A stretch of 33,339 nt of DNA from a virus (Duplodnaviria > Heunggongvirae > Uroviricota > Caudoviricetes): IMG/VR virus record IMGVR_UViG_2671180294_000014; one strand, written 5' to 3'. Every line of letters begins with the position of its first letter. Position 1 is the first letter of the stretch. Shown piece by piece: positions 5,797 through 30,245 of this stretch. The notes beneath the pieces were generated by a model. It had not been told where the DNA came from. It saw nothing but the letters and a program-made list of their open reading frames with translations, and did no database searches. Position numbers and translations under genes: made by a program.

Positions 5797-5882
5797 CTCA
5801 ATAAATATGAGTTTATAAGTTAGGCCTCGAGATTTTGTAGAAAGGGATGTATACTGAGTATCGTATAGATTTGGAGTGAGTG

Positions 5883-6905
5883 ATGACTGTAAAGGTGATA
5901 GACCTTTTTTGTGGTGCTGGCGGATTAACTCATGGTTTGCAGCTTGCGGGGCTTGATGTCGTTGCAGGCATTGACCTTGAGGGGGAATGTAGGTTTCCCT
6001 ATGAAAGAAACAATAAATCTAAGTTTATTGAGCAAGATATCGCTAAAGTAACAAAAGAGGAACTGCTGAGGCTTTATGGTGATGCGTCTGTAAAAGTATT
6101 GGCAGGATGCGCACCTTGCCAACCTTTTTCAAAATATACTCAAGGAAAAGATAAGGCTGATGATAAAAAATGGCCTCTTCTTTATGAGTTCGAACGTTTA
6201 ATTCGCGAAGTATCTCCAGAAATCGTAACAATGGAGAACGTTCCTGATGTAACTAAACATAAAGTTTATAATGATTTTTATAATTCATTGTTAAAGTTGG
6301 GCTATTATGTTTGGGCGTCTAAGATTGATTGTGTCGAATATGGAATCCCACAAAACCGTTCCCGTCATGTATTGTTGGCCTCAAAATTGGGGGCGATTGA
6401 GTTAGTAAAACGTGACGATGTTATTTTGAAAACAGTTAGAGATGCAATAGGAAATCTTCCTCCATTAGAAGATGGCCAAACAGATCCAAATGATATATTA
6501 CATAGAGCCAGTAAATTAAATCCGATTAATAAAAAAAGAATTATACACTCTGTTCCTGGTGGTACATGGAAGGACTGGCCGAAAGAGTTGGTTGCCGCTT
6601 GTCATATGAAATCCAGCGGTAAAGGGTATGCTAGTGTATATGGGCGCATGTCTTGGGATAAGCCAAGTCCAACAATTACAACTCTTTGTTATGGTTTCGG
6701 GAATGGGCGTTTTGGACATCCAGAACAGCATAGAGCGATTTCTCTTAGAGAGGCTGCTTTATTGCAAACTTTCCCGATGGATTATATTTTTGTAGAAGAC
6801 AAAAACAAGTTTGTTATAAGAAGTATTGGGAAAATGATAGGTAATGCTGTTCCTGTGGAACTAGGAAAAGCAATTGGGCAATCAATCAAGAACCATTTAG
6901 AATGA
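5883..6905 (+). CDS. DNA (cytosine-5)-methyltransferase, 340 aa, hotspot cargo
   Basis: The m5C-MTase motifs are all present: I DLFCGAGG, IV GCAPCQPFS (catalytic PCQ), VI MENVPDV, VIII QNRSRHVLLAS, and X IGNAVPV. A GGAG Shine-Dalgarno lies 6-7 nt before the ATG (the ORF track starts at a GTG at 5880). The gene is visibly AT-rich compared with the phage backbone. Confidence 0.92.
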   Translation: MTVKVIDLFCGAGGLTHGLQLAGLDVVAGIDLEGECRFPYERNNKSKFIEQDIAKVTKEELLRLYGDASVKVLAGCAPCQPFSKYTQGKDKADDKKWPLLYEFERLIREVSPEIVTMENVPDVTKHKVYNDFYNSLLKLGYYVWASKIDCVEYGIPQNRSRHVLLASKLGAIELVKRDDVILKTVRDAIGNLPPLEDGQTDPNDILHRASKLNPINKKRIIHSVPGGTWKDWPKELVAACHMKSSGKGYASVYGRMSWDKPSPTITTLCYGFGNGRFGHPEQHRAISLREAALLQTFPMDYIFVEDKNKFVIRSIGKMIGNAVPVELGKAIGQSIKNHLE

Positions 6906-6911
6906 TAAAAT

Positions 6912-6928
6912 GGCCTGCTTTACAGGCC
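6912..6928. terminator. Bidirectional hairpin terminator GGCCTG-cttta-CAGGCC between the convergent MTase and HEPN genes
   Basis: Six-bp GC stem flanked by an A-run on one side and T residues on the other. Confidence 0.6.
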
Positions 6929-6934
6929 TTATAA

Positions 6935-7615
6935 CTATTGTTCTAAATATTCATTATTATTTATATAGTGCTCTATATTATTCACGATAGCATCAAGATA
7001 GGCGATTACTTCTAATGAAATATTCTCTAAGTCCTGATATGAAACATTTTTTCCAATCTCAGCAAATGATACATTGCCATGAGATAAATCATTACGATGT
7101 TGTTTAACAGTGGCTAATTTTTCACCATGTTTAGTGTGAGTGTAATCGGAATGTGTAGAAAAACCATATATTTTCGATTTTTCTTTGATTTCCTCTCTAT
7201 CAATATTTCCTGAGAATATTTTCTTTTTGTTGAACGTGCCATAAGATATACCGCAAGATATACCTTTGGTAAGGTGATTAACTAAACTTTCAACATTTAC
7301 AGATTCATTTTTTAATCTTTTTAATATTTCTGACCTGAGATTTTTCCTGAGTTTGTCAAATTCTACGTTTCTATCATAAATAGTCTCATGAATAAGGCAG
7401 ATAGCTTCTCTCATTGTTGATTCAATGAGGTTATATAACAGTATATATACTGCTCCCTTTAGAGTTTTTCGTGATTGAGCAGTAATGGAGAACTTATGTT
7501 CTTTATCATCAGCTGATATCAGTTCTGCACCGGCATACTCAATAAATTTCAAAAGATCCAAATAGGCCAAGATCTCTCCTGACCTTTCGTCAAAATCCTC
7601 ACGAAAACGATCCAT
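6935..7615 (-). CDS. HEPN-like (putative RNase) protein, 226 aa, downstream partner of the DUF262 gene
   Basis: KQHRNDLSHG contains an R-x4-H HEPN-type motif near the C-terminus. The size is typical of small stand-alone HEPN proteins. The gene is AT-rich. It is translationally coupled to the upstream gene (…GAT TAA C ATG, with GAGGA Shine-Dalgarno). Confidence 0.55.
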   Translation of the reverse strand: MDRFREDFDERSGEILAYLDLLKFIEYAGAELISADDKEHKFSITAQSRKTLKGAVYILLYNLIESTMREAICLIHETIYDRNVEFDKLRKNLRSEILKRLKNESVNVESLVNHLTKGISCGISYGTFNKKKIFSGNIDREEIKEKSKIYGFSTHSDYTHTKHGEKLATVKQHRNDLSHGNVSFAEIGKNVSYQDLENISLEVIAYLDAIVNNIEHYINNNEYLEQ

Positions 7616-7616
7616 G

Positions 7617-8759
7617 TTAATCCTCTAATAATTTATCCCGAACATATTCAATTCGTTCAATTACCTTCACGCGACTATTAGCTCCGTCGGAAGTGGTCAA
7701 TCGTTTGAATTCTTCTGAGCTTAGCCAATCTAAGTTCTTGGGAACAAGGTCAGGGACTTCACGTAATGCAAGTGCTGCGCCAACAGCGAGAGATTCGAAT
7801 CTAACTCGAGGTGTAGATTTTGCAGTAATAGTTTTCTTGAATCCTGCTGGGAAATAGTTTTCAACAAAAGATAGAACATTAGCAAACTCTTGTTTCATTG
7901 AGTTTTGTTTAGTTTCGTCTATATCTCGATTTTCTGACATATAGTCATTTAGAAAATCCCGTACGGAATGATCAAAGTTCTTGTACTTATCTACGTAGGC
8001 AAAGAATCTTAATGTAAATTCTAACCGTTCATCTCGTTTTTCTTTAGTCTGAGATAAAGGTGCTAATTCTTTAAATTTAGGTATTGTTGAGCATGGCTTA
8101 ATAACCTGTGTATATAAATTTGTTGAACCAAGTTCTGATCCTTTACGGACTTCCATATCTTTCAATATATCGCTGCCAGAGTTAATACGCTCAAAAAGAT
8201 CTCTACGGGTTTCTTCATTGCATTTAGAACTCAATTCTATAACGCGGACAGGAATTCTCATGAAACGACGTTGACGTGATAATGGTAAATCTTGGAATTT
8301 GAAACCATTAAGGACGTCTAAAGATTTCAGGTCTTGTAAAACTAATTCATTTTGGATAAAAGCGTGTATAGTCCTAACTCGTTGTGAGCCATCAACAATC
8401 TCAATTCGCCCATCTAAATCGGGATCTTCGGAGAGAACATCTGCTATAAATATATATGGTATAGGAAAACCCAAAATCAAAGACTCTATCAATTTTGATT
8501 GTCTTTTTTCACTCCAAACAAAATCCCTTTGATAATCAGGAACAAAGAGTTCGTTAGTATCATCCTCTAATCCGTTATGATACTTATTAACTAATAACTC
8601 AACGGTAAATTCTTTGGTCTCAAAATCCACATCCTTTTGCTCAGCACGAATTTGCTCTTCAGCGTTTTGCTTTATCACCTCTAGCTGAGCAAGCAACTCT
8701 GCTCTTTTCTTGGCATTATCTTCATTTTCTAGTTGAGATTTTAAATCAATAATGTCCAT
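7617..8759 (-). CDS. DUF262 (GmrS/ParB-like NTPase-nuclease fold) protein, about 380 aa, with an N-terminal coiled-coil
   Basis: Hallmark DUF262 motifs are FVPDYQRDFVWS and IEIVDGSQRVRT (DGQQR-type). The first ATG is at 8759, with an AAGGGA Shine-Dalgarno 7 nt upstream. The ORF track extends to a TTG at 8777. Confidence 0.85.
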   Translation of the reverse strand: MDIIDLKSQLENEDNAKKRAELLAQLEVIKQNAEEQIRAEQKDVDFETKEFTVELLVNKYHNGLEDDTNELFVPDYQRDFVWSEKRQSKLIESLILGFPIPYIFIADVLSEDPDLDGRIEIVDGSQRVRTIHAFIQNELVLQDLKSLDVLNGFKFQDLPLSRQRRFMRIPVRVIELSSKCNEETRRDLFERINSGSDILKDMEVRKGSELGSTNLYTQVIKPCSTIPKFKELAPLSQTKEKRDERLEFTLRFFAYVDKYKNFDHSVRDFLNDYMSENRDIDETKQNSMKQEFANVLSFVENYFPAGFKKTITAKSTPRVRFESLAVGAALALREVPDLVPKNLDWLSSEEFKRLTTSDGANSRVKVIERIEYVRDKLLED

Positions 8760-8944
8760 GTCTAGTTCCCTTAACAAGTGTTAAAAATTGAAGCGGATAG
8801 CATACCGCATAGATCATGAAAAATGCCATCATGTGCATGGATTTGCATGCGTCAGAAGTCGCTTTTATTGTTAGTTATCACTAGCGCTGGCGTGCTCTTG
8901 GAGTGTTCATGCAACTGCATTAAAACCGCCCCATGAAGCGGGCG

Positions 8945-8963
8945 GGCGAGGCGGGGAAAGCAC
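8945..8963. other. cos cohesive-end sequence GGCGAGGCGGGGAAAGCAC (P2-type 19-nt cohesive end)
   Basis: Exact 19-nt match to the P2 cohesive end as I recall it. It lies between the hotspot and Q, where cos sits in P2. Confidence 0.7.
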
Positions 8964-9102
8964 TGCGCGCTGGCGGTGGTGCTGATTTTATTTTCCAGCG
9001 TCTCAGCGCGTCGTGACGGCGCTTAGTCTGCCCGTTGGGCGTTGGTGTGTCTGCGGGATTTTTTGTGCGGTGATGAGCGTGTGAGGGCGTGATGGCGGGG
9101 TG

Positions 9103-9124
9103 TAAAAAAGCCGCCCGCAGGCGG
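9103..9124 (-). terminator. Rho-independent terminator of the P-Q operon (GCCGCC-tgcg-GGCGGC followed by a U-run on the minus strand)
   Basis: GC stem-loop with a T-run on the coding (minus) strand 7 nt after the Q stop. Confidence 0.7.
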
Positions 9125-9130
9125 CGATGT

Positions 9131-10165
9131 TCAGCCGTTGTCAGTGTCCAGTGAGTAGTTTTTAAAGCGGATGACCTCCTGACCGAGCCAGCCGTTTATC
9201 TCGCGGATCCTGTCCTGTAACGGGATAAGCTCATTGCGGACAAAGACCTTTGCCACTTTCTCAATATCACCCAGCGACCCGACGTTCTCCGGCTTGCCCC
9301 CCATCAACTGAAAGGGGATGCGGTGCGCGTCCAGCAGGTCAGCGGCGCTGGCTTTTTTGATATTAAAAAAATCGTCCTTCGTTGCCACTTCACTGAGCGG
9401 GATAATTTTAATGCCGTCGGCTTTCCCCTGTGGGGCATAGAGAAACAGATTTTTAAAGTTATTGCGGCCTTTCGACTTAACCATGTTTTCGCGAAGCATT
9501 TCGATATCGTTGCGATCCTGCACGGCATCGGTGACGTACATGATGTATCCGGCATGTGCGCCGTTTTCGTAATACTTGCGGCGGAACAGCGTGGCCGACT
9601 CATTCAGCCATGCAGAGTTAAGGGCGCTGAGATATTCCGGCAGGCCGTACAGCTCCTGATTAATATCAGGCTCCAGCAGGTGAAACACGGAGCCGGGCGC
9701 GAAGGCTGTCGGCTCGTTGAAGGACGGCACCCACCAGTAAACATCCTCCTCCACGCCACGACGGGTATATTTGGCCGGTGAGGTTTCCAGTCTGATGACC
9801 TTACCGGTGGTGCTGTAACGCTTTTCCAGAAACGCATTACCGAACACCAGAAAATCCAGCACAAAACGGCTGAAATCCTGCTGGGAAAGCCACGGGTGCG
9901 GGATAAACGTTGAAGCCAGAATATTACGTTTGACGTAAATCGGTGAGCTGTGATGCACGGCAGCACGCAGGCTTTTTGCCAGACCGGTAAAGCTGACCGG
10001 CGGCTCATACCATCTGCCGTTACTGATGCACTCGACGTAATCCAGAATGTCACGGCGGTCGAGTACCGGCACCGGCTCACCAAAGGTGAATGCTTCCATT
10101 TTCGGGGCGCTGGCGGTGATTGTTTTTGCCGCAGGTCGCGGTGTTTTCCCTTTTTTCTTGCTCAT
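9131..10165 (-). CDS. Q: Portal protein Q, 344 aa
   Basis: The length is identical to P2 gpQ. It is the first gene beside cos, and its start overlaps the stop of P. Confidence 0.93.
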   Translation of the reverse strand: MSKKKGKTPRPAAKTITASAPKMEAFTFGEPVPVLDRRDILDYVECISNGRWYEPPVSFTGLAKSLRAAVHHSSPIYVKRNILASTFIPHPWLSQQDFSRFVLDFLVFGNAFLEKRYSTTGKVIRLETSPAKYTRRGVEEDVYWWVPSFNEPTAFAPGSVFHLLEPDINQELYGLPEYLSALNSAWLNESATLFRRKYYENGAHAGYIMYVTDAVQDRNDIEMLRENMVKSKGRNNFKNLFLYAPQGKADGIKIIPLSEVATKDDFFNIKKASAADLLDAHRIPFQLMGGKPENVGSLGDIEKVAKVFVRNELIPLQDRIREINGWLGQEVIRFKNYSLDTDNG

Positions 10166-11937
10166 CAGTAAAACTCCAGAATGGTGGATGTCAGCGGAGT
10201 GCTGATACCGGCGGTGAGTGGCTCATTTAACAGGGCGTGCATGGTTGCCCAGGCGAGGTCGGCGTGGCTGGCTTCCTCGCTGCGGCTGGCCTCATAGGTG
10301 GCACTGCGTCCGCTGCTGGTCATGGTCTTGCGGATAGCCATGAACGAGCTGGTGATGTCGGTGGCGCTGACGTCATATTCCAGACAGCCACGGCGGATGA
10401 CGTCTTTGGCCTTGAGCACCATTGCGGTTTTCATTTCCGGCGTGTAGCGGATATCGCGCGCGGCGGGATAGAACGAGCGCACGAGCTGGAACACGCCGAC
10501 ACCGAGGCCGGTGGCATCAATACCGATGTATTCGACGTTGTATTTTTCGGTGAGTTTGCGGATGGACTCCGCCTGGGTGGCAAAGTCCATGCCTTTCCAC
10601 TGGTGACGCTCAAGTATTCTGAATTTGCCACCGGCCACCACCGGCGGTGCCAGCACCACGCATCCGGCGCTGTCGCCACGGTGTGACGGGTCGTAACCAA
10701 TCCATACCGGGCGGGAGCCGAACGGATTTGCGGCAAACGGCGCGTAGTCTTCCCATTCTTCCAGCGTGTCGACCATGCAGCGTTGCAGCTCCTCGAACGG
10801 GAACACCGATACCTTGTCGTCAACAAATTCACACATGAACAGGTTTTTAAAATCGTCGGCGCTGTTTTCGCGTTTGAGCTGCTCAATGTCGAACAATGTG
10901 CAGCCGCCTTTCAGGGCGTCCTCAATGGTGACAATCTGCCGCCACTGGCCGTCCGCACAGAGAAGACCACCGGCAAGGGCGTTATGACTGACGTCGATTT
11001 CCACACGTTCGGCGGCGCTGGCGCGTCCCCGGTTGAACAGTTCACCCGACCAGAACGGGTAGGCGTCGTGCGCCAGCGTGGACGGGGTGGAGAAATAGGT
11101 CGAGCGCAGGTGACTCTGTGAGGCCATACCTGATGCCACCTTACGCAGTACCTGAAAATTCGGGATCCAGAAAATCTCGTCGACGTACAGGTCGCCGTTA
11201 TGGCTCTGTGCGGTGTTGGAGTTGGTGCCGAGAAAAATCAGTTTTGCGCCGTTATTGCCCAGGACAATCGGGTCACCGGTCAGGTCAACGTCAACCAGAC
11301 GAGCAAAGGCGATGATGTATTCACGGAACACATACGCCTGCGTTTTACTGGCCGACAGAAAAATCTGGTTATGGCCGGTTTTCAGGGCGCGCAGCAGCGC
11401 CTCGCGGGAAAAATAAAACGTCGCGCCAATCTGGCGGGATTTCAGGATATCGCGGATGCGGTGCTCAAGCCCGGCACGATACCAGTGCAACTGATAGTCG
11501 AAAGACTGCTCAAAGAAAATCTGCTCCAGCTTTTCGATGGCCTCGTCACTGAAAAAATTCTTTTTCGGTTTGCGACGCCCGCCTTTGTTGCGGTTAGCGA
11601 TGTTCGGATTAAGGTCTGCCTCGTTGCCGGTCTGGCTGTAGCGGTTTACCCGTGCCAGTCGTTCAATCTGGCGTCCGAGCAGGTCAATTTCCTTGAAGTC
11701 ACCGCCGGTTTTCTGCGGTTTGATGATGAGCTGGGTCAGCCGCGCTTCCAGACTCATTTCGACACGGCTGATGGGGGCAACACTGTCCCAGCCGTCGCGC
11801 TGTTTCCAGCTCTGCACCGTCGGGCGTTTCATCTGCAACATGGCGGCAATCTGCGGCACGGAAAACCCCTGCCAGTACAGCAGCGCCGCCTGACGACGCG
11901 GGTCGTGTAAAAGAGTGGTGTCTGTGGTGATGGTCAT
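10165..11937 (-). CDS. P: Terminase large subunit P (ATPase), 590 aa
   Basis: Starts at MTITTDTTLLHDPRRQAALLYWQGF, which matches P2 gpP. The ORF is open from 11967. Confidence 0.93.
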   Translation of the reverse strand: MTITTDTTLLHDPRRQAALLYWQGFSVPQIAAMLQMKRPTVQSWKQRDGWDSVAPISRVEMSLEARLTQLIIKPQKTGGDFKEIDLLGRQIERLARVNRYSQTGNEADLNPNIANRNKGGRRKPKKNFFSDEAIEKLEQIFFEQSFDYQLHWYRAGLEHRIRDILKSRQIGATFYFSREALLRALKTGHNQIFLSASKTQAYVFREYIIAFARLVDVDLTGDPIVLGNNGAKLIFLGTNSNTAQSHNGDLYVDEIFWIPNFQVLRKVASGMASQSHLRSTYFSTPSTLAHDAYPFWSGELFNRGRASAAERVEIDVSHNALAGGLLCADGQWRQIVTIEDALKGGCTLFDIEQLKRENSADDFKNLFMCEFVDDKVSVFPFEELQRCMVDTLEEWEDYAPFAANPFGSRPVWIGYDPSHRGDSAGCVVLAPPVVAGGKFRILERHQWKGMDFATQAESIRKLTEKYNVEYIGIDATGLGVGVFQLVRSFYPAARDIRYTPEMKTAMVLKAKDVIRRGCLEYDVSATDITSSFMAIRKTMTSSGRSATYEASRSEEASHADLAWATMHALLNEPLTAGISTPLTSTILEFY

Positions 11938-12003
11938 GAATACCTCGCCGTGATGAATACACGGCAAGGCTACTGAGTCGCGCCCCGCGATTCGCTAATG
12001 TGC

Positions 12004-12024
12004 TGTTGTGTCAGTGATAAACCA
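12004..12024. promoter_or_regulatory. Late-promoter activator (Ogr) site candidate, TGTTGT-gTCA...ACCA / TGT-N12-CCA, in the divergent P/O control region
   Basis: Partial dyad symmetry of the TGT-N12-ACA class. A near-identical element lies upstream of FI at 25503-25523. Confidence 0.45.
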
Positions 12025-12110
12025 TCCGGGACTGATGGCGGAGGATGCGCATCGTCGGGAAACTGATGCCGACATGTGACTCCTCTAATCACTATTCAGG
12101 ACTCCTGACA

Positions 12111-12965
12111 ATGGCAAAAAAAGTCTCAAAATTCTTTCGTATCGGCGTTGAGGGTGACACCTGTGACGGGCGTGTCATCAGTGCGCAGGATATTCAGGAA
12201 ATGGCCGAAACCTTTGACCCGCGTGTCTATGGTTGCCGCATTAACCTGGAACATCTGCGCGGCATCCTGCCTGACGGTATTTTTAAGCGTTATGGCGATG
12301 TGGCCGAACTGAAGGCCGAAAAGATTGACGATGATTCGGCGCTGAAAGGCAAATGGGCGCTGTTTGCGAAAATCACCCCGACCGATGACCTTATCGCGAT
12401 GAACAAGGCCGCGCAGAAGGTCTACACCTCAATGGAAATTCAGCCGAACTTTGCCAACACCGGCAAATGTTATCTGGTGGGTCTGGCCGTCACCGATGAC
12501 CCGGCAAGCCTCGGCACGGAATACCTGGAATTCTGCCGCACGGCAAAACACAACCCCCTGAACCGCTTCAAATTAAGCCCTGAAAACCTGATTTCAGTGG
12601 CAACGCCTGTTGAGCTGGAATTTGAAGACCTGCCTGAAACCGTGTTCACCGCCCTGACCGAAAAGGTGAAATCCATTTTTGGCCGCAAACAGGCCAGCGA
12701 TGATGCCCGTCTGAATGACGTGCATGAAGCGGTGACCGCTGTTGCTGAACATGTGCAGGAAAAACTGAGCGCCACTGAGCAGCGCCTCGCTGAGATGGAA
12801 ACCGCCTTTTCTGCACTTAAGCAGGAGGTGACTGACAGGGCGGATGAAACCAGCCAGGCATTCACCCGCCTGAAAAACAGTCTCGACCACACCGAAAGTC
12901 TGACCCAGCAGCGCCGCAGCAAGGCCACCGGTGGTGGCGGTGACGCCCTGATGACGAACTGCTGA
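12111..12965 (+). CDS. O: Capsid scaffold protein O, 284 aa
   Basis: MAKKVSKFFRIGVEGDTCDGRVISAQDIQEMAETFDPRVYG matches P2 gpO. The upstream in-frame extension to 12045 is unlikely to be translated. Confidence 0.92.
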   Translation: MAKKVSKFFRIGVEGDTCDGRVISAQDIQEMAETFDPRVYGCRINLEHLRGILPDGIFKRYGDVAELKAEKIDDDSALKGKWALFAKITPTDDLIAMNKAAQKVYTSMEIQPNFANTGKCYLVGLAVTDDPASLGTEYLEFCRTAKHNPLNRFKLSPENLISVATPVELEFEDLPETVFTALTEKVKSIFGRKQASDDARLNDVHEAVTAVAEHVQEKLSATEQRLAEMETAFSALKQEVTDRADETSQAFTRLKNSLDHTESLTQQRRSKATGGGGDALMTNC

Positions 12966-20802: not shown

Positions 20803-23121
20803 ATGAGCACAAAATTCAGAACCGTTATCACCACTGCCGGTGCAGCAAAGCTGGCAGCGGCAACCGCACCGGGAGGGCGGAAGGTCAACATTACCACGAT
20901 GGCCGTCGGGGATGGCGGTGGTAAATTGCCTGTCCCGGATGCCGGACAGACCGGGCTTATCCACGAAGTCTGGCGACATACGCTGAACAAAATCAGCCAG
21001 GACAAACGAAACAGTAATTATATTATCGCAGAGCTGGTTATTCCGCCGGAGGTGGGCGGTTTCTGGATGCGTGAGCTTGGCCTGTACGATGATGCGGGAA
21101 CGTTAATTGCCGTGGCGAACATGGCCGAAAGTTATAAGCCAGCTCTTGCCGAAGGCTCAGGGCGTTCGCAGACCTGTCGCATGGTCATCATCGTCAGCAG
21201 TGTGGCCTCGGTGGAGCTGACCATTGACACCACAACGGTGATGGCGACACAGGATTACGTTGATGACAAAATTGCAGAGCACGAACAGTCACGACGTCAC
21301 CCGGACGCCTCGCTGACCGCAAAAGGTTTTACTCAGTTAAGCAGTGCGACCAACAGCACGTCTGAAACACTGGCCGCAACGCCGAAAGCGGTAAAGGCCG
21401 CCTATGACCTTGCTAACGGGAAATATACCGCACAGGACGCTACCACAGCTCGAAAAGGTCTTGTCCAGCTCAGTAGTGCCACCAACAGCACGTCTGAAAC
21501 GCTTGCGGCAACGCCAAAGGCGGTTAAGACAGCGTATGACCTTGCTAACGGGAAATACACTGCACAGGACGCCACTACAGCGCGAAAAGGTCTTGTCCAG
21601 CTCAGTAGCGCCACCAACAGCGATTCTGAAACGCTTGCGGCAACACCAAAGGCGGTTAAGACAGCGTATGACCTTGCTAACGGGAAATACACTGCACAGG
21701 ATGCCACCACAGCGCGAAAAGGTCTTGTCCAGCTAAGTAGTGCCATCAACAGCGATTCTGAAACGCTGGCCGCAACGCCAAAAGCAGTGAAGTCTGCCTA
21801 TGACAATGCTGAAAAACGTCTTCAGAAAGATCAGAACGGTGCGGATATTCCGGGAAAGGATACCTTCACGAAAAATATCGGTGCCTGTCGTGCTTATAGC
21901 GGCGCTTTGAGCACTGAAGCCGGAAACTGGACAACCGCTCAGTTTATTGAATGGCTGGATTCCCGTGGTGCATTTAATCATCCGTACTGGATGTGCAAAG
22001 GCTCCTGGTCATATGCAAATAACAAAATCATTACGGATACCGGATGTGGTGATATCCACCTGGCTGGTTGTGTCGTCGAGGTCATGGGAACTAAATCTGC
22101 AATCACTATCCGAGTGACCACGCCAACAACATCAAGCGGTGGCGGTACAACCAGCGCGCAATTCACTTACATAAATCATGGGGACGGCTACTCCCCCGGC
22201 TGGCGTCGTGACTGGAATCGTCAGGGCGACTCAATGACCGGAACGATTAATCAGGATGGCGGAAGCCAGAATGCCTATATGTCTACGGCCTTATGTTCAG
22301 GCACCAGAGGCGGCAAAAAATATCTCAGAAAGTTTCGTGGTGGAGAAGGAGATACTATCTGGCATGAAACAGTTCAGGGCGGGGTAATTCGCTGGGCGAC
22401 AGGAAACAATGACGCTCAGGAAGAATTATCACTCAGCTCCGCTTATGGTCTCCGTTCAAGAGGTGAAATTACATCACTCAGTGCTAATGGTCTGCGCATT
22501 GCTTATGGCAATTATGGATTCTTTATCAGGAATGATGGCGGCAGCACATATTTAATGCTGACGGCCTCTGGCGATAAATTTGGGACATGGAACGGCTTAA
22601 GACCGCTGACTATCAATAACGCCAATGGCGGAGTGTCAATGGGGCATGGCCTGAGTGTTACAGGTGATATTGTCTCAAGTACCAAAGTACGTGCCGGTAG
22701 CGGGAAAAAGTTCACGGTCAGCAGCAGCAATACATCCACGAAGGAAGCCGCATTCAATTTGTGGGGAAACTCAAGTCGTCCTGTGGTGGCTGAATTAGGT
22801 GATGATGCAGGCTGGCATTTTTACAGTCAGAGAAATACAGATAACAGCATCACTTTTGCTGTTAACGGGCAGGTATCACCATCTAACTATGGCAACTTTG
22901 ATTCACGCTATGTCCGGGATATCCGGCTTGGTGGTGCTGCCACATACAAACCTGCGAACAATGGTATGACATGGACACATCAGGCACCGTCCGGGTGTGT
23001 ATATTCCGGCATTATTGTTCAGGATACCGGCTCAAACTCTGCCGATAACATTGGTGGCGTATATTACAGACCGGTGCAGAAATACATTAACGGGACTTGG
23101 TATAACGTGGCACAGGTATAA
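20803..23121 (+). CDS. H: Tail fibre protein H, 772 aa, with an internal 44-aa tandem-repeat region and a divergent receptor-binding C-terminal part
   Basis: The N-terminal roughly 170 aa match P2 gpH. The protein is about 100 aa longer than P2 H (669 aa) because of the repeats. Confidence 0.9.
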   Translation: MSTKFRTVITTAGAAKLAAATAPGGRKVNITTMAVGDGGGKLPVPDAGQTGLIHEVWRHTLNKISQDKRNSNYIIAELVIPPEVGGFWMRELGLYDDAGTLIAVANMAESYKPALAEGSGRSQTCRMVIIVSSVASVELTIDTTTVMATQDYVDDKIAEHEQSRRHPDASLTAKGFTQLSSATNSTSETLAATPKAVKAAYDLANGKYTAQDATTARKGLVQLSSATNSTSETLAATPKAVKTAYDLANGKYTAQDATTARKGLVQLSSATNSDSETLAATPKAVKTAYDLANGKYTAQDATTARKGLVQLSSAINSDSETLAATPKAVKSAYDNAEKRLQKDQNGADIPGKDTFTKNIGACRAYSGALSTEAGNWTTAQFIEWLDSRGAFNHPYWMCKGSWSYANNKIITDTGCGDIHLAGCVVEVMGTKSAITIRVTTPTTSSGGGTTSAQFTYINHGDGYSPGWRRDWNRQGDSMTGTINQDGGSQNAYMSTALCSGTRGGKKYLRKFRGGEGDTIWHETVQGGVIRWATGNNDAQEELSLSSAYGLRSRGEITSLSANGLRIAYGNYGFFIRNDGGSTYLMLTASGDKFGTWNGLRPLTINNANGGVSMGHGLSVTGDIVSSTKVRAGSGKKFTVSSSNTSTKEAAFNLWGNSSRPVVAELGDDAGWHFYSQRNTDNSITFAVNGQVSPSNYGNFDSRYVRDIRLGGAATYKPANNGMTWTHQAPSGCVYSGIIVQDTGSNSADNIGGVYYRPVQKYINGTWYNVAQV
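21334..21800 (+). repeat. About 3.5 tandem copies of a 132-bp (44-aa) in-frame repeat inside H (unit QLSSATNSTSETLAATPKAVKAAYDLANGKYTAQDATTARKGLV)
   Basis: The unit starts at 21334, 21466, 21598 and 21730. Copies are more than 90% identical at the DNA level. Confidence 0.9.
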
Positions 23122-23124
23122 TTT

Positions 23125-23652
23125 ATGCAGCATTTGATAAATATAACGGCAGGTAATCCAAAAACGGTTGAACAATATCAATTGACAAAGGACTTTGATG
23201 TTGTCTGGTTTTTTTCAGAAGATGGTAAGAACTGGTACGAAGAACAAAAGTATTTTGCTGATGACACGATAAAAATAGCGTACGACAAAGATAATATTAT
23301 CCGCTATGTGGAAAAGGATGTGACAGCTATCAGACCGGATGGATTAAGTGTTGTTGAAGTGCCGGATATTACTGCTAACCGACGGGCGGACATTTCAGGG
23401 AACTGGATGTTTAAGGACTGTACAGTGATTAAACGAATTTATACGGCAGAGGAATTGCAGCAGCAGGCAGAAAATCGGAAAGCCAGACTTCTTGCAGATG
23501 CTGAATCCGTGATTTTGCCGCTGGAGCGCGCTGTCAGGCTGAATATGGCAACAGATGAGGAGCGCAGTCGACTGGAGGCATGGGAACGCTACAGTGTTCT
23601 GGTCAGTCGTGTGGATCCTGCAAATCCTGAATGGCCGGAAATGCCGCAATAA
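23125..23652 (+). CDS. G: Tail fibre assembly chaperone G, 175 aa
   Basis: Length and position match P2 gpG. Confidence 0.88.
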
Positions 23653-23734
23653 GTTGTATGAGCTCTGGTGTGAGCTTACATATCTATGGCACAGAGTAAA
23701 GCCTAATCTGAGAGTCCGCTCTGTGCCAGAAGTA

Positions 23735-23762
23735 GACGCACAAGGTGGGCGTGTCTTTTTCT
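23735..23762 (+). terminator. Rho-independent terminator after the V-to-G operon (GACGCAC-aaggtgg-GCGTGTC followed by TTTTTCTT)
   Basis: Imperfect 7-bp stem followed by a T-run. Confidence 0.5.
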
Positions 23763-23766
23763 TAAG

Positions 23767-25185
23767 CTACATCGGGCTCTTATATGGGGAATGAGAGTTT
23801 TTGAAACGCGGTTCTTCATGCTTCGGACTGTAAATTCTTGCATGATTATCTATCACAACTTTACTTCCAAGAATATCTCGAGCTTCTCCTAACGACCACA
23901 CAGTAGAAAGATCATTAGTCAAATTTCGATAGAGAGCACGAAACCCCTTGGGTTTTTTAAGATCATATAAGAAATCAGGAACTTTAACTTTAAAATTAAA
24001 GGTCGGTAGTTTCGGAAGGGAATTAATAGCCGCAACAGTATTGTATACATGTACAAGCTTAGTTACAGGTACACCTTGTCTAGTCTTGAGCCCATACTTA
24101 GTTCGAATATAATCTGATTCTTTCGATACTTCAGTAAGCAATGCTCTTACTGACTTATTAGCTTGAGGCAATTCATTTTCATCAAACAAGCGCTTTATTT
24201 CTCGCATTTTCTCACGGGCCCTTACAAATTCGTTGTTGTCCCTTATGTTATAAGCAGCTTCAACAATACAACTTGGATCACCAGTTTCTTTTGCGAGCCA
24301 TGCCGAAAATAAAGGAAGCGAAGTTGCTGTTGCTACAGCTTTACCACCAGAATGAATATCAATGAGATCATGACTTAACGAAGTGGAAAAGTTTTCTACA
24401 ATATGTTTAGCATAGTCAAAACCATACTGACAGTTTTGGCTTAAATATGTCTGTTGATACGCCTGACGTAATGGATATAAAAAAGTATCTGCTTGAAGGT
24501 ACTTAGCTGTGAGAGAATAAAATACTGCCCGATTAGCCAGCCATACAAGCGAAGCCACGAATGCTTTGATTGCATCTGATGCTTCACCAGCAGATGTGCC
24601 ATCCCCCCATTTTGCTCCGGGAACTTTGTACCCCTTGCGAATAGGGTTGCCAAATCGATCGAGAAGTTCAACATCGCCATTTGTTCTATTACCAGACTCA
24701 GCAGCATCACGCAGTTCTGAAAAAATGGCAGCAGCAATGTTACCATATTTTTCAAACTCCTTACCTCCATCAGATAAGTTCTTCAGTGTTAGATGATAAA
24801 CACTTGAACTAATGTCCCATGTACATATGATATGTGTCTGAAGAAGTTCAATTAGTTTTTTAAAATCGTCATTAACAAATGTTCCACCACGAATTTTAGG
24901 TTTCAATGCATCAGATATTTTTTTTGCTTCACTTTCAATTTCATCCAACCCATATTGTGCTTTATCAAGAAATAATATCTCTCTGAAACTTGAAATCCTA
25001 CTCCCACGGTACTCTGGAATATAATCATCAACCGCGATAACGTGATCATAGAACAAAATAGACTGTATATAGTTCTCAAATGCTATTATGTCTGTATCTA
25101 CTGAGTCCTTCGATCTTGTTTTTACTTTCCCCTCGATTCTTTGGACTGCAGTTAGAGTTGAATTATCAATCAGTGCGTATGTCAT
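23767..25185 (-). CDS. Hypothetical 472-aa protein, AT-rich cargo at the P2 Z/fun hotspot position. No recognisable catalytic motif, and no Walker A.
   Basis: Long ORF on the strand opposite to the flanking late genes. It has its own promoter and Shine-Dalgarno (AAGGA 7 nt before the ATG). Its codon and GC usage are unlike the phage backbone. Confidence 0.8.
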   Translation of the reverse strand: MTYALIDNSTLTAVQRIEGKVKTRSKDSVDTDIIAFENYIQSILFYDHVIAVDDYIPEYRGSRISSFREILFLDKAQYGLDEIESEAKKISDALKPKIRGGTFVNDDFKKLIELLQTHIICTWDISSSVYHLTLKNLSDGGKEFEKYGNIAAAIFSELRDAAESGNRTNGDVELLDRFGNPIRKGYKVPGAKWGDGTSAGEASDAIKAFVASLVWLANRAVFYSLTAKYLQADTFLYPLRQAYQQTYLSQNCQYGFDYAKHIVENFSTSLSHDLIDIHSGGKAVATATSLPLFSAWLAKETGDPSCIVEAAYNIRDNNEFVRAREKMREIKRLFDENELPQANKSVRALLTEVSKESDYIRTKYGLKTRQGVPVTKLVHVYNTVAAINSLPKLPTFNFKVKVPDFLYDLKKPKGFRALYRNLTNDLSTVWSLGEARDILGSKVVIDNHARIYSPKHEEPRFKNSHSPYKSPM

Positions 25186-25213
25186 TTACATTCCTTAAAT
25201 AAAAAACATTAAT

Positions 25214-25238
25214 GGTTGCTCCAAAAATACTAGCAACC
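25214..25238. promoter_or_regulatory. Perfect 7-bp inverted repeat GGTTGCT-N11-AGCAACC spanning the -10 of that promoter (candidate operator)
   Basis: Read directly from the sequence. Confidence 0.35.
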
Positions 25239-25256
25239 TTATTTCAGTGAAGTCAA
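25227..25256 (-). promoter_or_regulatory. Sigma70-like promoter of the 472-aa gene: TTGACT (25256-25251), 18-nt spacer, TAGTAT (25232-25227), on the minus strand
   Basis: Good -35 and -10 hexamers with correct spacing, about 40 nt upstream of the start codon. Confidence 0.55.
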
Positions 25257-25473
25257 TTTTTTAACATTAATCATTTACACACGCTTGAAAAGTGATCGCT
25301 GAAAATGGCATTTACTACATTATCAAAGTTCCCATCGAAGATAATCGAAATTTTTCCCGGTAGCAGATATCGTGAGATTTAACGCTTTTCGCTCATAGCA
25401 GGCTGTCAGATTTGATAGCGTTTGGGCTATGTAAACTGTCAGTCGGAAAATGAGTGTGTACAAATCAGGACAT

Positions 25474-25500
25474 GCGGGCGAATTGCCCGCATTTTCTTTA
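25474..25500 (+). terminator. Stem-loop GCGGGC-gaatt-GCCCGC followed by ATTTTCTTT (terminator-like) inside the hotspot-2/FI intergenic region
   Basis: Six-bp GC stem plus a U-rich tail on the plus strand, immediately upstream of the FI late-promoter element. Confidence 0.35.
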
Positions 25501-25502
25501 TC

Positions 25503-25523
25503 TGTTGTTTCATCCACTGACCA
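25503..25523. promoter_or_regulatory. Late promoter PF activator-site candidate, TGTTGT-tTCA...ACCA (TGT-N12-CCA)
   Basis: Near-identical to the element at 12004-12024. It lies about 75 bp upstream of the FI start, which has a GGAG Shine-Dalgarno at 25584. Confidence 0.45.
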
Positions 25524-25595: not shown

Positions 25596-26786
25596 ATGAG
25601 TGACTATCATCACGGCGTGCAGGTGCTGGAGATTAACGACGGCACCCGCGTCATTTCCACCGTATCCACTGCCATTGTCGGCATGGTCTGCACGGCCAGC
25701 GATGCGGATGCGGAAACCTTCCCCCTCAATAAACCGGTGCTGATTACCAATGTGCAGAGCGCAATTGCAAAGGCCGGTAAAAAAGGCACGCTGGCGGCAT
25801 CGTTGCAGGCCATCGCCGACCAGTCAAAACCGGTCACCGTTGTCGTGCGTGTGGAAGACGGCACCGGCGACGACGAGGAAACGAAACTCGCGCAGACCGT
25901 TTCCAATATCATCGGCACCACCGACGAAAACGGTCAGTACACCGGACTGAAAGCCCTGCTGGCGGCGGAGTCGGTAACCGGTGTTAAACCGCGTATTCTC
26001 GGCGTGCCGGGACTGGACACCAAAGAGGTGGCTGTTGCACTGGCATCAGTCTGTCAGAAGCTGCGCGCTTTCGGGTATATCAGCGCATGGGGCTGTAAGA
26101 CCGTTTCCGAGGTGAAAGCCTACCGTCAGAATTTCAGCCAGCGTGAGCTGATGGTCATCTGGCCGGATTTCCTCGCATGGGATACGGTCGCCAGTACCAC
26201 CGCCACCGCGTATGCCACCGCCCGTGCGCTGGGTCTGCGCGCTAAAATCGACCAGGAGCAGGGCTGGCATAAAACGCTGTCCAACGTCGGGGTGAACGGT
26301 GTTACCGGCATCAGCGCGTCCGTATTCTGGGATTTGCAGGAGTCCGGCACCGATGCTGACCTGCTTAACGAGTCAGGCGTCACAACGCTGATTCGCCGTG
26401 ACGGTTTCCGCTTCTGGGGTAACCGTACCTGCTCTGATGACCCGCTGTTCCTCTTTGAAAACTACACCCGCACCGCGCAGGTGCTGGCCGACACGATGGC
26501 TGAGGCGCACATGTGGGCGGTGGACAAGCCCATCACCGCAACGCTGATTCGCGACATCGTTGACGGCATCAATGCCAAATTCCGTGAGCTGAAAACAAAC
26601 GGCTATATCGTGGATGCGACCTGCTGGTTCAGCGAAGAATCCAACGATGCGGAAACCCTCAAGGCCGGAAAACTGTATATCGACTACGACTATACCCCGG
26701 TGCCTCCTCTTGAAAACCTGACCCTGCGCCAGCGTATTACCGATAAATACCTGGCAAATCTGGTCACCTCGGTTAACAGCAATTAA
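25596..26786 (+). CDS. FI: Tail sheath protein FI, 396 aa
   Basis: Length and position match P2 gpFI. Confidence 0.92.
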   Translation: MSDYHHGVQVLEINDGTRVISTVSTAIVGMVCTASDADAETFPLNKPVLITNVQSAIAKAGKKGTLAASLQAIADQSKPVTVVVRVEDGTGDDEETKLAQTVSNIIGTTDENGQYTGLKALLAAESVTGVKPRILGVPGLDTKEVAVALASVCQKLRAFGYISAWGCKTVSEVKAYRQNFSQRELMVIWPDFLAWDTVASTTATAYATARALGLRAKIDQEQGWHKTLSNVGVNGVTGISASVFWDLQESGTDADLLNESGVTTLIRRDGFRFWGNRTCSDDPLFLFENYTRTAQVLADTMAEAHMWAVDKPITATLIRDIVDGINAKFRELKTNGYIVDATCWFSEESNDAETLKAGKLYIDYDYTPVPPLENLTLRQRITDKYLANLVTSVNSN

Positions 26787-27649: not shown

Positions 27650-27801
27650 CGCTTCCGAAAAATCTGTCGGTCGATGACCTGATGGCGGATGTGGCAGTGA
27701 TATTTCACTGGCCGCCATCAGAACTGTATCCCATGAGCCTGACCGAACTCATCACATGGCGCGAAAAGGCGCTCAGGCGAAGCGGAAACACGAATGAGTA
27801 A
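27374..27801 (+). CDS. E': Tail assembly chaperone E+E' (142 aa), made by a programmed -1 frameshift at T TTT TTG (27622-27628)
   Basis: The slippery heptamer is in the correct zero frame. I translated the -1 frame by hand: it runs VAELGAVTLPKNLSVDDLMADVAVIFHWPPSELYPMSLTELITWREKALRRSGNTNE and stops at 27799-27801, overlapping the T start. The total length equals P2 E' (142 aa). Confidence 0.8.
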
Positions 27802-30245
27802 CAATGTAAAATTACAGGTATTGCTCAGGGCTGTTGACCAGGCGTCCCGCCCGTTTAAATCCATCCGCAGAGCGAGTAAGTTGCTGTCGGGGGATATCCG
27901 GGAAACACAAAAATCACTGCGCGAGCTGAACGGTCACGCATCCCGTATTGAGGGATTCCGCAAGACCAGTGCACAGCTCGCCGTGACTGGTCATGCACTT
28001 GAAAAGGCACGGCAGGAGGCCGAAGCCCTTGCCACACAGTTTAAAAACACCGAACGCCCGACCCGTGCTCAGGCGAAAGTGCTGGAATCCGCAAAGCGTG
28101 CGGCGGAGGACTTACAGGCGAAATATAACCGCCTGACAGATTCCGTTAAACGCCAGCAGCGGGAACTGGCCGCTGTGGGAATTAATACCCGCAATCTTGC
28201 ACATGATGAGCAGGGACTGAAAAACCGTATCAGTGAAACCACCGCCCAGCTTAACCGGCAGCGTGACGCGCTGGCGCGTGTCAGTGCGCAACAGGCAAAA
28301 CTTAACGCAGTCAAACAGCGTTATCAGGCCGGAAAGGAACTGGCCGGAAATATGGCCTCAGTGGGCGCTGCCGGTGTGGGGATTGCTGCTGCGGGAACGA
28401 TAGCCGGAGTTAAGCTGCTGATGCCAGGTTATGAGTTTGCGCAGAAAAACTCAGAATTGCAGGCTGTGCTCGGTGTGGCAAAAGACTCCGCCGAAATGGC
28501 TGCACTCCGCAAGCAGGCGCGCCAGCTCGGTGACAACACCGCCGCCTCAGCGGATGATGCGGCCGGTGCACAGATTATCATTGCGAAAGCGGGTGGGGAT
28601 GTTGATGCCATTCAGGCGGCAACGCCGGTCACGCTGAATATGGCGCTGGCGAACCGCCGCACAATGGAAGAAAACGCCGCCCTGCTGATGGGGATGAAAT
28701 CCGCCTTTCAGCTTTCAAACGATAAGGTCGCTCATATCGGGGATGTTCTCTCCATGACGATGAACAAAACCGCCGCTGATTTTGACGGCATGAGCGATGC
28801 GCTGACCTATGCCGCACCAGTGGCAAAAAATGCCGGTGTCAGCATTGAAGAAACCGCCGCAATGGTCGGGGCGCTGCATGATGCAAAAATCACAGGCTCA
28901 ATGGCGGGGACGGGAAGCCGTGCCGTGTTAAGTCGCCTGCAGGCACCGACTGGAAAAGCATGGGATGCACTCAAAGAGCTTGGCGTGAAAACCTCAGACA
29001 GTAAGGGAAACACCCGACCAGTATTTACCATTCTGAAAGAAATGCAGGCCAGCTTTGAGAAAAACCGGCTCGGTACTGCCCAGCAGGCCGAATACATGAA
29101 AACCATTTTCGGGGAGGAGGCCAGCTCAGCCGCCGCTGTGCTGATGACTGCCGCGTCAACCGGAAAGCTGGACAAACTGACCGCTGCGTTTAAAGCCTCA
29201 GACGGGAAGACCGCAGAGCTGGTAAATATCATGCAGGACAACCTCGGCGGTGACTTTAAGGAGTTTCAGTCCGCTTATGAGGCGGTGGGGACAGACCTGT
29301 TTGACCAGCAGGAAGGCGCGCTACGTAAGCTCACGCAGACGGCCACAAAGTATGTGTTAAAACTCGACGGCTGGGTACAGAAAAACAAATCACTGGCGTC
29401 AACCATTGGCCTCATTGCCGGTGGCGCGCTGGCGCTGACTGGCATCATCGGTGCAATTGGTCTTGTAGCCTGGCCGGTTATCACCGGCATCAATGCCATC
29501 ATCGCGGCAGCAGGCGCAATGGGGGCAATCTTCACGACGGTTGGTAGTGCCGTTATGACGGCCATCGGGGCGATTAGCTGGCCGGTTGTGGCTGGGGGGG
29601 NNNNNNNNNNNNNTCGCCGGGGCGTTGCTTATCCGTAAATACTGGGAGCCTGTCAGCGCATTCTTTGGCGGTGTGGTTGAAGGGCTGAAAGCGGCATTTG
29701 CGCCGGTGGGGGAGCTGTTCACGCCACTGAAACCGGTGTTTGACTGGCTGGGCGAAAAGTTACAGGCTGCGTGGCAGTGGTTTAAAAACCTGATTGCCCC
29801 GGTCAAAGCCACCCAGGACACCCTGAACCGTTGCCGTGACACGGGCGTCATGTTCGGGCAGGCACTGGCTGACGCGCTGATGCTGCCGCTTAATGCGTTC
29901 AACAAATTGCGCAGCGGCATTGACTGGGTACTGGAAAAGCTCGGGGTCATCAACAAAGAGTCAGACACACTTGACCAGACCGCCGCCAGAACTCATGCCG
30001 CCACGTATGGCACCGGTGGTTATATTCCGGCGACCAGCTCTTATGCAGGCTATCAGGCTTATCAGCCGGTCACGGCACCGGCTGGCCGCTCTTATGTGGA
30101 CCAGAGTAAAAACGAATATCACATCAGCCTGACGGGTGGTACTGCACCGGGGACACAGCTTGACCGCCAGTTACAGGATGCGCTCGAAAAATACGAGCGG
30201 GATAAACGTGCGCGCGCCCGTGCCAGCATGATGCATGACGGTTAA
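27794..30245 (+). CDS. T: Tail tape-measure protein T (about 815 aa), interrupted by an assembly gap of 13 Ns at 29601-29613 that breaks the apparent frame
   Basis: Two collinear ORFs (27794-29638 and 29586-30245) flank the N-run. The protein is coiled-coil and Ala/Gly-rich, typical of tape-measure proteins. The position matches P2 gpT. Confidence 0.85.
29601..29613. other. Assembly gap (13 x N)
   Basis: Run of ambiguous bases. Confidence 1.

Follow-up and report, generated by a model that had tools for sequence, protein, structure and literature searches.

The stretch of DNA analysed here, which we call the window, is the whole 33,339-nt virus record IMGVR_UViG_2671180294_000014, an essentially complete P2-type prophage. 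Between its tail-fibre-assembly gene G and its sheath gene FI lies an open reading frame (ORF) of 472 codons, antisense to the plus-strand genes that flank it on either side. The product, WP_000220361.1, is labelled 'hypothetical protein' in RefSeq, and PHROG 13435, to which it belongs, is a family of unknown function. We describe the boundaries of this gene, its autonomy, the breadth of its family and the mobile elements and defence genes with which it is associated, and we consider how far these observations support a tentative reading of the protein as a stand-alone anti-phage factor.

Comparison with phage P2 by BLASTN defines the edges of the insert directly, as homology to P2 ends at one side of a 1,658-bp segment and resumes at the other. 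This cargo stands in for the P2 segment that encodes the 299-aa Z/fun ORF, and it contains the 472-aa ORF alone, together with 203 bp of upstream DNA that includes a promoter-like site and 36 bp downstream. A composition profile of the window places the gene in an AT-rich island at 23.0-25.5 kb; the ORF has 37.9% GC and a GC content at third codon positions (GC3) of 0.27, compared with a GC3 of 0.70 for FI and 51% GC for the window as a whole. An initial annotation, made from the letters alone, had described an AT-rich ORF of this length on the strand opposite to the tail operons, and the ORF listing and composition agree with that description exactly. Its placement of the gene at the Z/fun position is borne out by the BLASTN comparison, and the description of a single-gene cargo at a recognised hotspot fits the one ORF, the foreign GC content and the plausible expression signals of its own. 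A 64-aa ORF with a GTG start (25323-25517) spans the junction between cargo and backbone and is probably spurious.

The Z/fun locus is the recognised second hotspot of P2 (bioRxiv 10.1101/2024.10.15.618418; PMC9122126), and the interval between G and FI behaves as such a site in Escherichia coli, with variable DNA of foreign composition set between conserved backbone genes. Matches to the query, chiefly through the G and FI flanks, were found in 1,070 of 5,426 complete E. coli genomes, seven of which carry the cargo itself at 99.6-100% identity and with one matching place each. In other E. coli the interval encodes a DUF4145 protein, a 'lysogenic conversion protein' or other hypothetical proteins, or is without an annotated gene. 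A search of deposited plasmids found the gene in only four. Homologues on Pseudomonas aeruginosa plasmids of about 0.5 Mb (H42-H44) match residues 132-472 in one piece and have a second place in the same record; these could be split or rearranged genes, or could have a divergent N-terminal domain.

The first P2 hotspot of the same prophage, at the old/tin position (window 5880-8777, 36% GC), likewise holds cargo, whose three genes are given in Table 1; it is probably a second defence locus. Two further features of the tail region may be recorded. Four copies of a unit of about 46 aa (…ATNS[TD]SETLAATPKAVK[AT]AYDLANGKYTAQDATTARKGLVQLSS…) stand in tandem in gene H, at window ~21300-21750, and are apparent in translation and also as mirrored ORFs on both strands. 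The tape-measure ORF (27794-29638) is broken by a run of 13 N at 29601-29613, translated as XXXXX, and its listed end is therefore a masking artefact or an assembly gap.

Within the cargo, the Shine-Dalgarno sequence claimed in the initial annotation is in place before the ATG. The sigma-70 site that it had called strong-looking is present as stated and also has a TG extension, but sites of this kind occur no more often than in shuffled sequence (see below), so that the call of a strong promoter is reduced to that of a predicted one, plausible through its location and not through statistics. In copies of the module from Lonsdalea and Pantoea the -35 element is kept (as TTGATT) and the -10 is not; the AAGGA is kept in Lonsdalea, and Pantoea has GAGGG. 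On the downstream side, the stronger of two hairpins lies in conserved backbone common to P2, between the convergent G and cargo ORFs, and is without a canonical T-run on either side. It may act as a bidirectional transcription barrier or represent a recombination landmark. The weaker hairpin is kept in Lonsdalea and Pantoea and is not among the terminator-scan predictions; transcription running on from G into the ORF antisense may be halted there.

Table 1. Features of the cargo, its surroundings and the first P2 hotspot, in window coordinates.
Feature	Position	Strand	Basis and remarks
Cargo module, 1,658 bp, 37.3% GC, one gene	23731-25388		BLASTN vs phage P2; homologous to P2 through 23730 and from 25389 onward
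ORF, 472 aa, ATG start	23767-25185	minus	ORF listing; RefSeq WP_000220361.1, PHROG 13435
N-terminal alternating beta/alpha domain, codons 1-140	24766-25185	minus	AlphaFold2 model; most conserved part
Mostly helical region, codons 141-472	23770-24765	minus	AlphaFold2 model; proposed regulatory or sensor part
Shine-Dalgarno AAGGA, 6 nt before ATG	25192-25196	minus	Read from sequence
Sigma-70 promoter-like TTGACT-N18-TAGTAT with TG extension, inside cargo	25256-25227	minus	9/12 matches
Strong hairpin, 10-11-bp stem	23687-23728	either	-19.8 and -19.0 kcal/mol; z -4.3 plus, -3.1 minus
Weak hairpin followed by TTTTTCTT, in cargo tail	23728-23763	plus	-10.4 kcal/mol, z -1.4 only
Tail-fibre gene H	20803-23121	plus	ORF listing
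Tail-fibre-assembly gene G	23125-23652	plus	ORF listing
Sheath gene FI	25596-26786	plus	ORF listing
C5 cytosine DNA methyltransferase	5880-6905	plus	PADLOC DrmMII/MTase_II, 1e-90
226-aa protein	6935-7615	minus	No PADLOC match
386-aa NsnA / PD-T4-2_A-like protein	7617-8777	minus	PADLOC, 1.7e-54

The protein had been called an orphan, which is true of its annotation only, as it belongs to a large and well-conserved family distributed over many phyla. With the protein alone as query, 282 clusters were found at 90% identity. A profile search, run over 1.84 billion representatives, reached 325 clusters at 50% identity, of which 251 had E <= 1e-10 and 153 had E <= 1e-30. When the most divergent members were used as seeds, a further large alphaproteobacterial subfamily of ~459 aa was added, without a Pfam domain or a name. 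Full-length members are nearly all 455-485 aa long, with no fused domains seen. The hosts include Enterobacterales, Vibrio, Acinetobacter, Halomonas, Pseudomonas, Desulfotalea, Citrifermentans, Rhizobiales and Nitrospira, as well as Cyanobium, Verrucomicrobiota, Chloroflexi, Clostridia, Pelosinus, Bacteroidota, Leptospirales and Fimbriimonadaceae. The distribution is patchy and identity is at odds with phylogeny (73% to a Nitrospira metagenome-assembled genome, 72% to Desulfotalea), which points to horizontal spread of the family. The 472-aa protein has no match in Pfam or NCBIfam, matches in PHROGs only its own family, and found nothing in sequence and profile searches of the PDB; Pfam searches with 70 family members, and with both halves of the protein separately, gave scattered chance matches only.

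In these different hosts the gene stands by itself. At 46 loci, clustering of every ORF up to 6 kb away from it revealed no conserved partner, the most widespread neighbour family being present in at most five of the 46. A type II toxin-antitoxin arrangement would call for an adjacent conserved small gene, and none was found at these loci or in the one-ORF cargo. A type III toxin-antitoxin or abortive infection (Abi) system of the ToxIN or AbiQ type, or another reading based on non-coding RNA, was rejected in view of the lack of upstream tandem repeats and of any Rfam match of note. The Vibrio vulnificus homologue (69% identical; 8001-9419 of locus L005) lies between two attC-like repeats, at 7839-7973 and 9427-9555, and copies of this repeat recur every ~470 bp through a chromosomal array of small cassettes (7839-12410; also in L006 and L007). 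Because attC-like repeats bracket the gene within this array, the Vibrio homologue is a one-ORF integron cassette, large for a single ORF at 1.4 kb, with GNAT acetyltransferase and TacA-type cassettes as neighbours.

Defence genes recur in the vicinity of family members. Within two ORFs of the gene we found the Hachiman helicase HamB (1.6e-250 in L033; two such members in the pooled neighbour scan), PDC-S06 (2e-262, L041), an LmuB-like SMC ATPase (L035, with L036 and L038 in the same neighbour family by clustering), a type IV restriction enzyme (4e-225, L053), a type IIG restriction-modification enzyme (L046), a TIR protein of 1,490 aa (L022) and, in three members, type I methyltransferases. 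The Desulfotalea locus contains MksBEF with a fourth gene, a Mesorhizobium island contains a PLD protein, an AAA_11/12 helicase, a RelA_SpoT protein and a serine recombinase, and the Halomonas locus contains ParDE. By virtue of these neighbours, a defence or mobile-element gene adjoins the family member in about one quarter of some 50 independent loci, as a raw count. In Pseudomonas, a 36%-identical homologue lies downstream of the HamB helicase with one small ORF between them (L033, 7375-11398; also L051), and other copies adjoin PDC-S06 or the LmuB-like SMC ATPase, which suggests a common Pseudomonas defence hotspot.

The idea of a defence function gains independent support from the occurrence of the gene as a solo unit, from the Vibrio cassette and from the repeated defence neighbours in unrelated bacteria. 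It must be weighed against the possibility that this is a horizontally spread accessory gene outside defence, concerned with host fitness or lysogenic conversion, with anti-defence, with countering satellites, or with stress or regulation as an enzyme. We consider such a role unlikely. It would accord with the mixed content of P2/P4 hotspots as cargo sites, toxins and partition systems included (PMC9122126; bioRxiv 10.1101/2024.10.15.618418), with the finding that only three of eight additional P2 systems tested protect (PMC9122126), and with the good share of family loci that lack defence neighbours; however, the adjoining defence systems are unrelated to one another and recur in Pseudomonas, Cyanobium, Pelosinus, Fimbriimonadaceae, Desulfotalea and Mesorhizobium, and metabolic or regulatory domains are absent from the protein. 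The integron cassette and the non-phage chromosomal sites speak against an anti-defence or anti-satellite role specific to phages, which is therefore unlikely.

We considered what the protein itself might do on the basis of an alignment of 70 family sequences (21-89% identity). An AlphaFold2 (AF2) model built from close homologues only was poor, with a predicted local distance difference test (pLDDT) score of 62, and it was superseded by a model from the full alignment (pLDDT 80.8; predicted template-modelling (TM) score, pTM, 0.85), which divides the protein into the two parts listed in Table 1. The helical part includes a long hairpin at residues 318-364, low-confidence variable segments at 252-291 and 365-421, and a small C-terminal sheet. 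Both ends of the protein are conserved across homologues (N-terminal MTYALIDN, C-terminal ...KSPM), and the conservation score peaks in residues 1-70 (0.61), followed by 204-251 (0.52), with other segments at 0.29-0.52. Conserved positions are D7, N8, T10, T12, R16, G19, D32, E37, D47, D53, D54, Y55, R63, W123 and S128 in the N-terminal domain and W215, R219, Y223, R240 and R324 in the helical region. The acidic residues are kept down to 21% identity: D32 in 70 of 70 sequences, D7 in 69, E37 in 67 (with Asp in the other three), D54 in 66, and D47 and D53 in 64 each. There is no transmembrane segment (top 19-residue hydropathy 1.28), and the isoelectric point is 8.6.

The initial annotation had noted the absence of Walker A, HEPN and obvious nuclease motifs. 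A regular-expression search found no Walker A, and no AAA or ABC match was found in Pfam. The E. coli protein contains R-x(4-6)-H strings at 450-456 and 460-465, but in the alignment conservation stays below 80% at both their R and their H positions, so that the absence of a conserved HEPN motif also stands. The remark on nucleases is right in that no known signature can be recognised by sequence, but it may not be the whole picture, given the invariant acidic cluster of the N-terminal domain and a weak structural resemblance to PIN-like proteins: weak Foldseek matches in BFVD include two 5'-3' exonucleases, which we take to have PIN-like folds. The remote-homology and structure searches that had been proposed gave no confident match, neither Foldseek against the PDB and BFVD nor hhalign yielding a significant result. 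Alignment of the family profile with 135 neighbour proteins by hhalign gave no match of note; the best, a 25-residue N-terminal similarity to a Cys-rich neighbour, was judged to be due to chance.

Taken together, these features lead us to favour, with somewhat less than even confidence, a stand-alone one-protein anti-phage factor that would be expressed from its own promoter in the lysogen and would combine an acidic catalytic effector at the N-terminus with a helical regulator or sensor. Here, we infer the activity of the promoter, the role in defence, the catalytic site and the substrate. The cargo would provide lysogenic conversion, in the form of a cytoplasmic factor transcribed in the lysogen independently of the surrounding late tail operons. 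Residues 1-140 would constitute the effector, in which D7, D32, E37, D47, D53 and D54 could form a divalent-metal site, most likely that of a PIN-like nuclease with RNA or DNA as its substrate. The helical remainder, with its hairpin, its two variable segments and its invariant C-terminal tail, may keep the enzyme inactive until infection is sensed, and the outcome would be either a direct block of the invader or abortive infection. Because the protein is unrelated to Z/fun, exclusion of T5 cannot be deduced from the locus.

Several observations weigh against this proposal. On the genomic side, promoter-like sites show no excess in the AT-rich region (4 found, 6.1 +/- 2.6 in shuffles), all 50,697 deposited phage genomes lack the gene, and the remaining family loci, among them those of Acinetobacter, Rhodopseudomonas, Methylorubrum and Lonsdalea, lie in ordinary gene surroundings. 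None of the 5,027 models of PADLOC-DB v2.0.0 matches the protein at E <= 1, no family member has an informative name, a Pfam domain or a known function, and the accession is absent from searchable literature texts and from the DefensePredictor supplements. With regard to the proposed fold, Foldseek found nothing at E <= 0.001 in the PDB or BFVD, and generic Rossmann-like folds score as weakly as PIN-like ones. No PIN-clan Pfam family matched any of the 70 members at E <= 0.1, nor residues 1-141 alone at E <= 10; no N-terminal alignment resulted when the family profile was compared by hhalign with Shigella VapC (sequence verified against 3TND); and the spacing of the acidic residues is unlike that of canonical VapC.

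The same structural evidence could be read in terms of a defence protein that is not a nuclease, whose Rossmann-like N-terminal domain would bind or degrade a nucleotide or cofactor (NAD+, NTPs or a signalling nucleotide), or carry out nucleotidyl or phosphoryl transfer, in the manner of TIR, SIR2 and nucleotidyltransferase-type effectors. The weak Foldseek matches are mainly to Rossmann-like folds that bind nucleotides, namely short-chain dehydrogenases, cytidylyltransferases, methionyl-tRNA synthetase, nucleoside 2-deoxyribosyltransferase and QueC, all of them, however, with TM-scores of 0.1-0.2 and probabilities <0.2. Conserved R16, R63, Y55, W123, R219 and R240 could bind phosphates or bases, although the protein lacks a glycine-rich nucleotide-binding loop or Walker A and matches no hidden Markov model (HMM) for TIR, SIR2 or nucleotidyltransferase domains. 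The evidence from defence context applies equally to both kinds of enzyme, but an acidic cluster at strand ends is more typical of metal-dependent phosphodiester chemistry, and we regard a non-nuclease effector as a distinctly improbable version of the defence reading.

The boundaries of the module in other genomes bear on how it moves. The same promoter-plus-gene module, of ~1.68 kb, is found in Lonsdalea (L012; window 25399->23718, 90% nucleotide identity) and in Pantoea (L027; window 25396->23725, 81%), in non-P2 contexts whose flanks have no similarity to the remainder of the prophage. At the upstream junction (window 25383-25401; L012 ~9784-9800; L011 ~1781-1796), the P2 backbone and the non-P2 Lonsdalea locus agree in a 16-bp string, GCTTTGAGCGAGGAGC, in place of which the window reads TGAGCGAAAAGCG. 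At the opposite junction, the match of the window to Lonsdalea likewise extends ~13 bp into P2 backbone (TGGCACA..). These junctions suggest that the module was exchanged through the edges of the P2 hotspot, or bears remnants of them. An IS-like element or transposon was considered and rejected, there being no terminal inverted repeats at the module ends and only one place per genome in seven of seven carriers. That the gene is itself selfish, a novel recombinase or homing-type nuclease that moves its own 1.7-kb module or an addictive toxin that stabilises its element, strikes us as very improbable: near-identical module ends in three unrelated contexts, the shared 16-bp GCTTTGAGCGAGGAGC, an acidic cluster as in DDE/DEDD enzymes and weak matches to IS110-type and IS4 transposases could be cited for it, but those matches are helical-hairpin or low-TM ones, there is neither the inverted repeat and multiplicity expected of an element nor an antitoxin partner, tandem repeat or non-coding RNA, integron attC sites account for its movement in Vibrio, and other insertion sequences lie on both sides of the Tenderia copy.

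Returning to the one-protein anti-phage factor, we see it, with greater reserve, as possible that the family as a whole constitutes an undescribed single-protein immune system spread across phyla, in which a divergent PIN-like or Rossmann-like catalytic head is joined to a novel helical sensor in an architecture unlike solved ones, and which is mobile as hotspot cargo, integron cassette and defence-island gene. Prophage hotspots, like integron cassettes, have proved rich in new immune mechanisms, and this gene is found in both, as well as in defence islands of distant phyla, while its product goes unrecognised by domain libraries, defence catalogues and solved structures. The gene is short and autonomous, with its own predicted expression signals, and is a candidate of unusually broad distribution that would be cheap to test. 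If the defence role is true, it would add a new single-protein defence family, probably with a new sensor-effector architecture, and give a function to several hundred clusters of 'hypothetical proteins'; if it is false, the case would be a useful caution against equating hotspot location with defence. Specialists would be surprised only once a phenotype is shown.

Among known systems, Csm6-type CARF-HEPN ribonucleases have a similar length and a similar layout, with a Rossmann-like N-terminal part and a helical C-terminal part, and Thermus Csm6 is in the Foldseek list. We rejected this relationship, as the match (TM ~0.09, E 0.3-0.5) is not meaningful and the R-x(4-6)-H motif is unconserved in the family. 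PIN nucleases, which include VapC toxins, FEN/NYN relatives and PIN-like defence effectors, resemble the 472-aa protein as modelled, in which an N-terminal alpha/beta domain has an Asp just after strand 1 (ALIDNSTL, compared with the PIN motif 'hhDTN/S') and the helix that follows strand 2 carries a conserved Glu; the protein has further conserved Asp residues. In contrast to VapC, however, D53/D54 as the third acidic position would come much earlier, and the protein, at 3.5 times the length, comes without an antitoxin gene; neither HMM searches nor the hhalign comparison with VapC lend support.

The cargo occupies the same position between G and FI as P2 Z/fun, and both are AT-rich, non-essential single-gene cargos of a P2-type prophage. 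The two proteins are not homologous by BLASTP (best E 0.19 over 58 residues), Z/fun is 299 aa long compared with 472 aa, and in the P2 record it is co-directional with the tail genes, whereas the 472-aa ORF is antisense to them. The V. vulnificus homologue, as a one-ORF cassette bounded by attC-like repeats, has the setting of many new compact defence genes of Vibrio integrons, as set out in two reports (bioRxiv 10.1101/2024.07.02.601686; 10.64898/2026.03.17.712381), and it is not among the cassettes described in the portions of them that were consulted; its 1.4 kb also sets it apart. The closest likeness in kind is to the single-gene defence cargos of P2 and P4 (the DUF4238 protein, Tin and Old of P2; PD-T4-5, PD-T4-10 and PD-lambda-5), which are likewise hotspot-borne, self-expressed, of foreign composition and made up of one ORF (PMC9122126; bioRxiv 10.1101/2024.10.15.618418). 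None of their PADLOC or Pfam models matches the 472-aa protein, whose fold differs and is so far unmatched. Thus, what is new is a family without a counterpart in defence catalogues, in Pfam or among solved folds, and what is familiar is the form in which it comes, as the self-expressed one-gene cargo of a P2 hotspot is a well-known kind of object (PMC9122126; PMC13586616).

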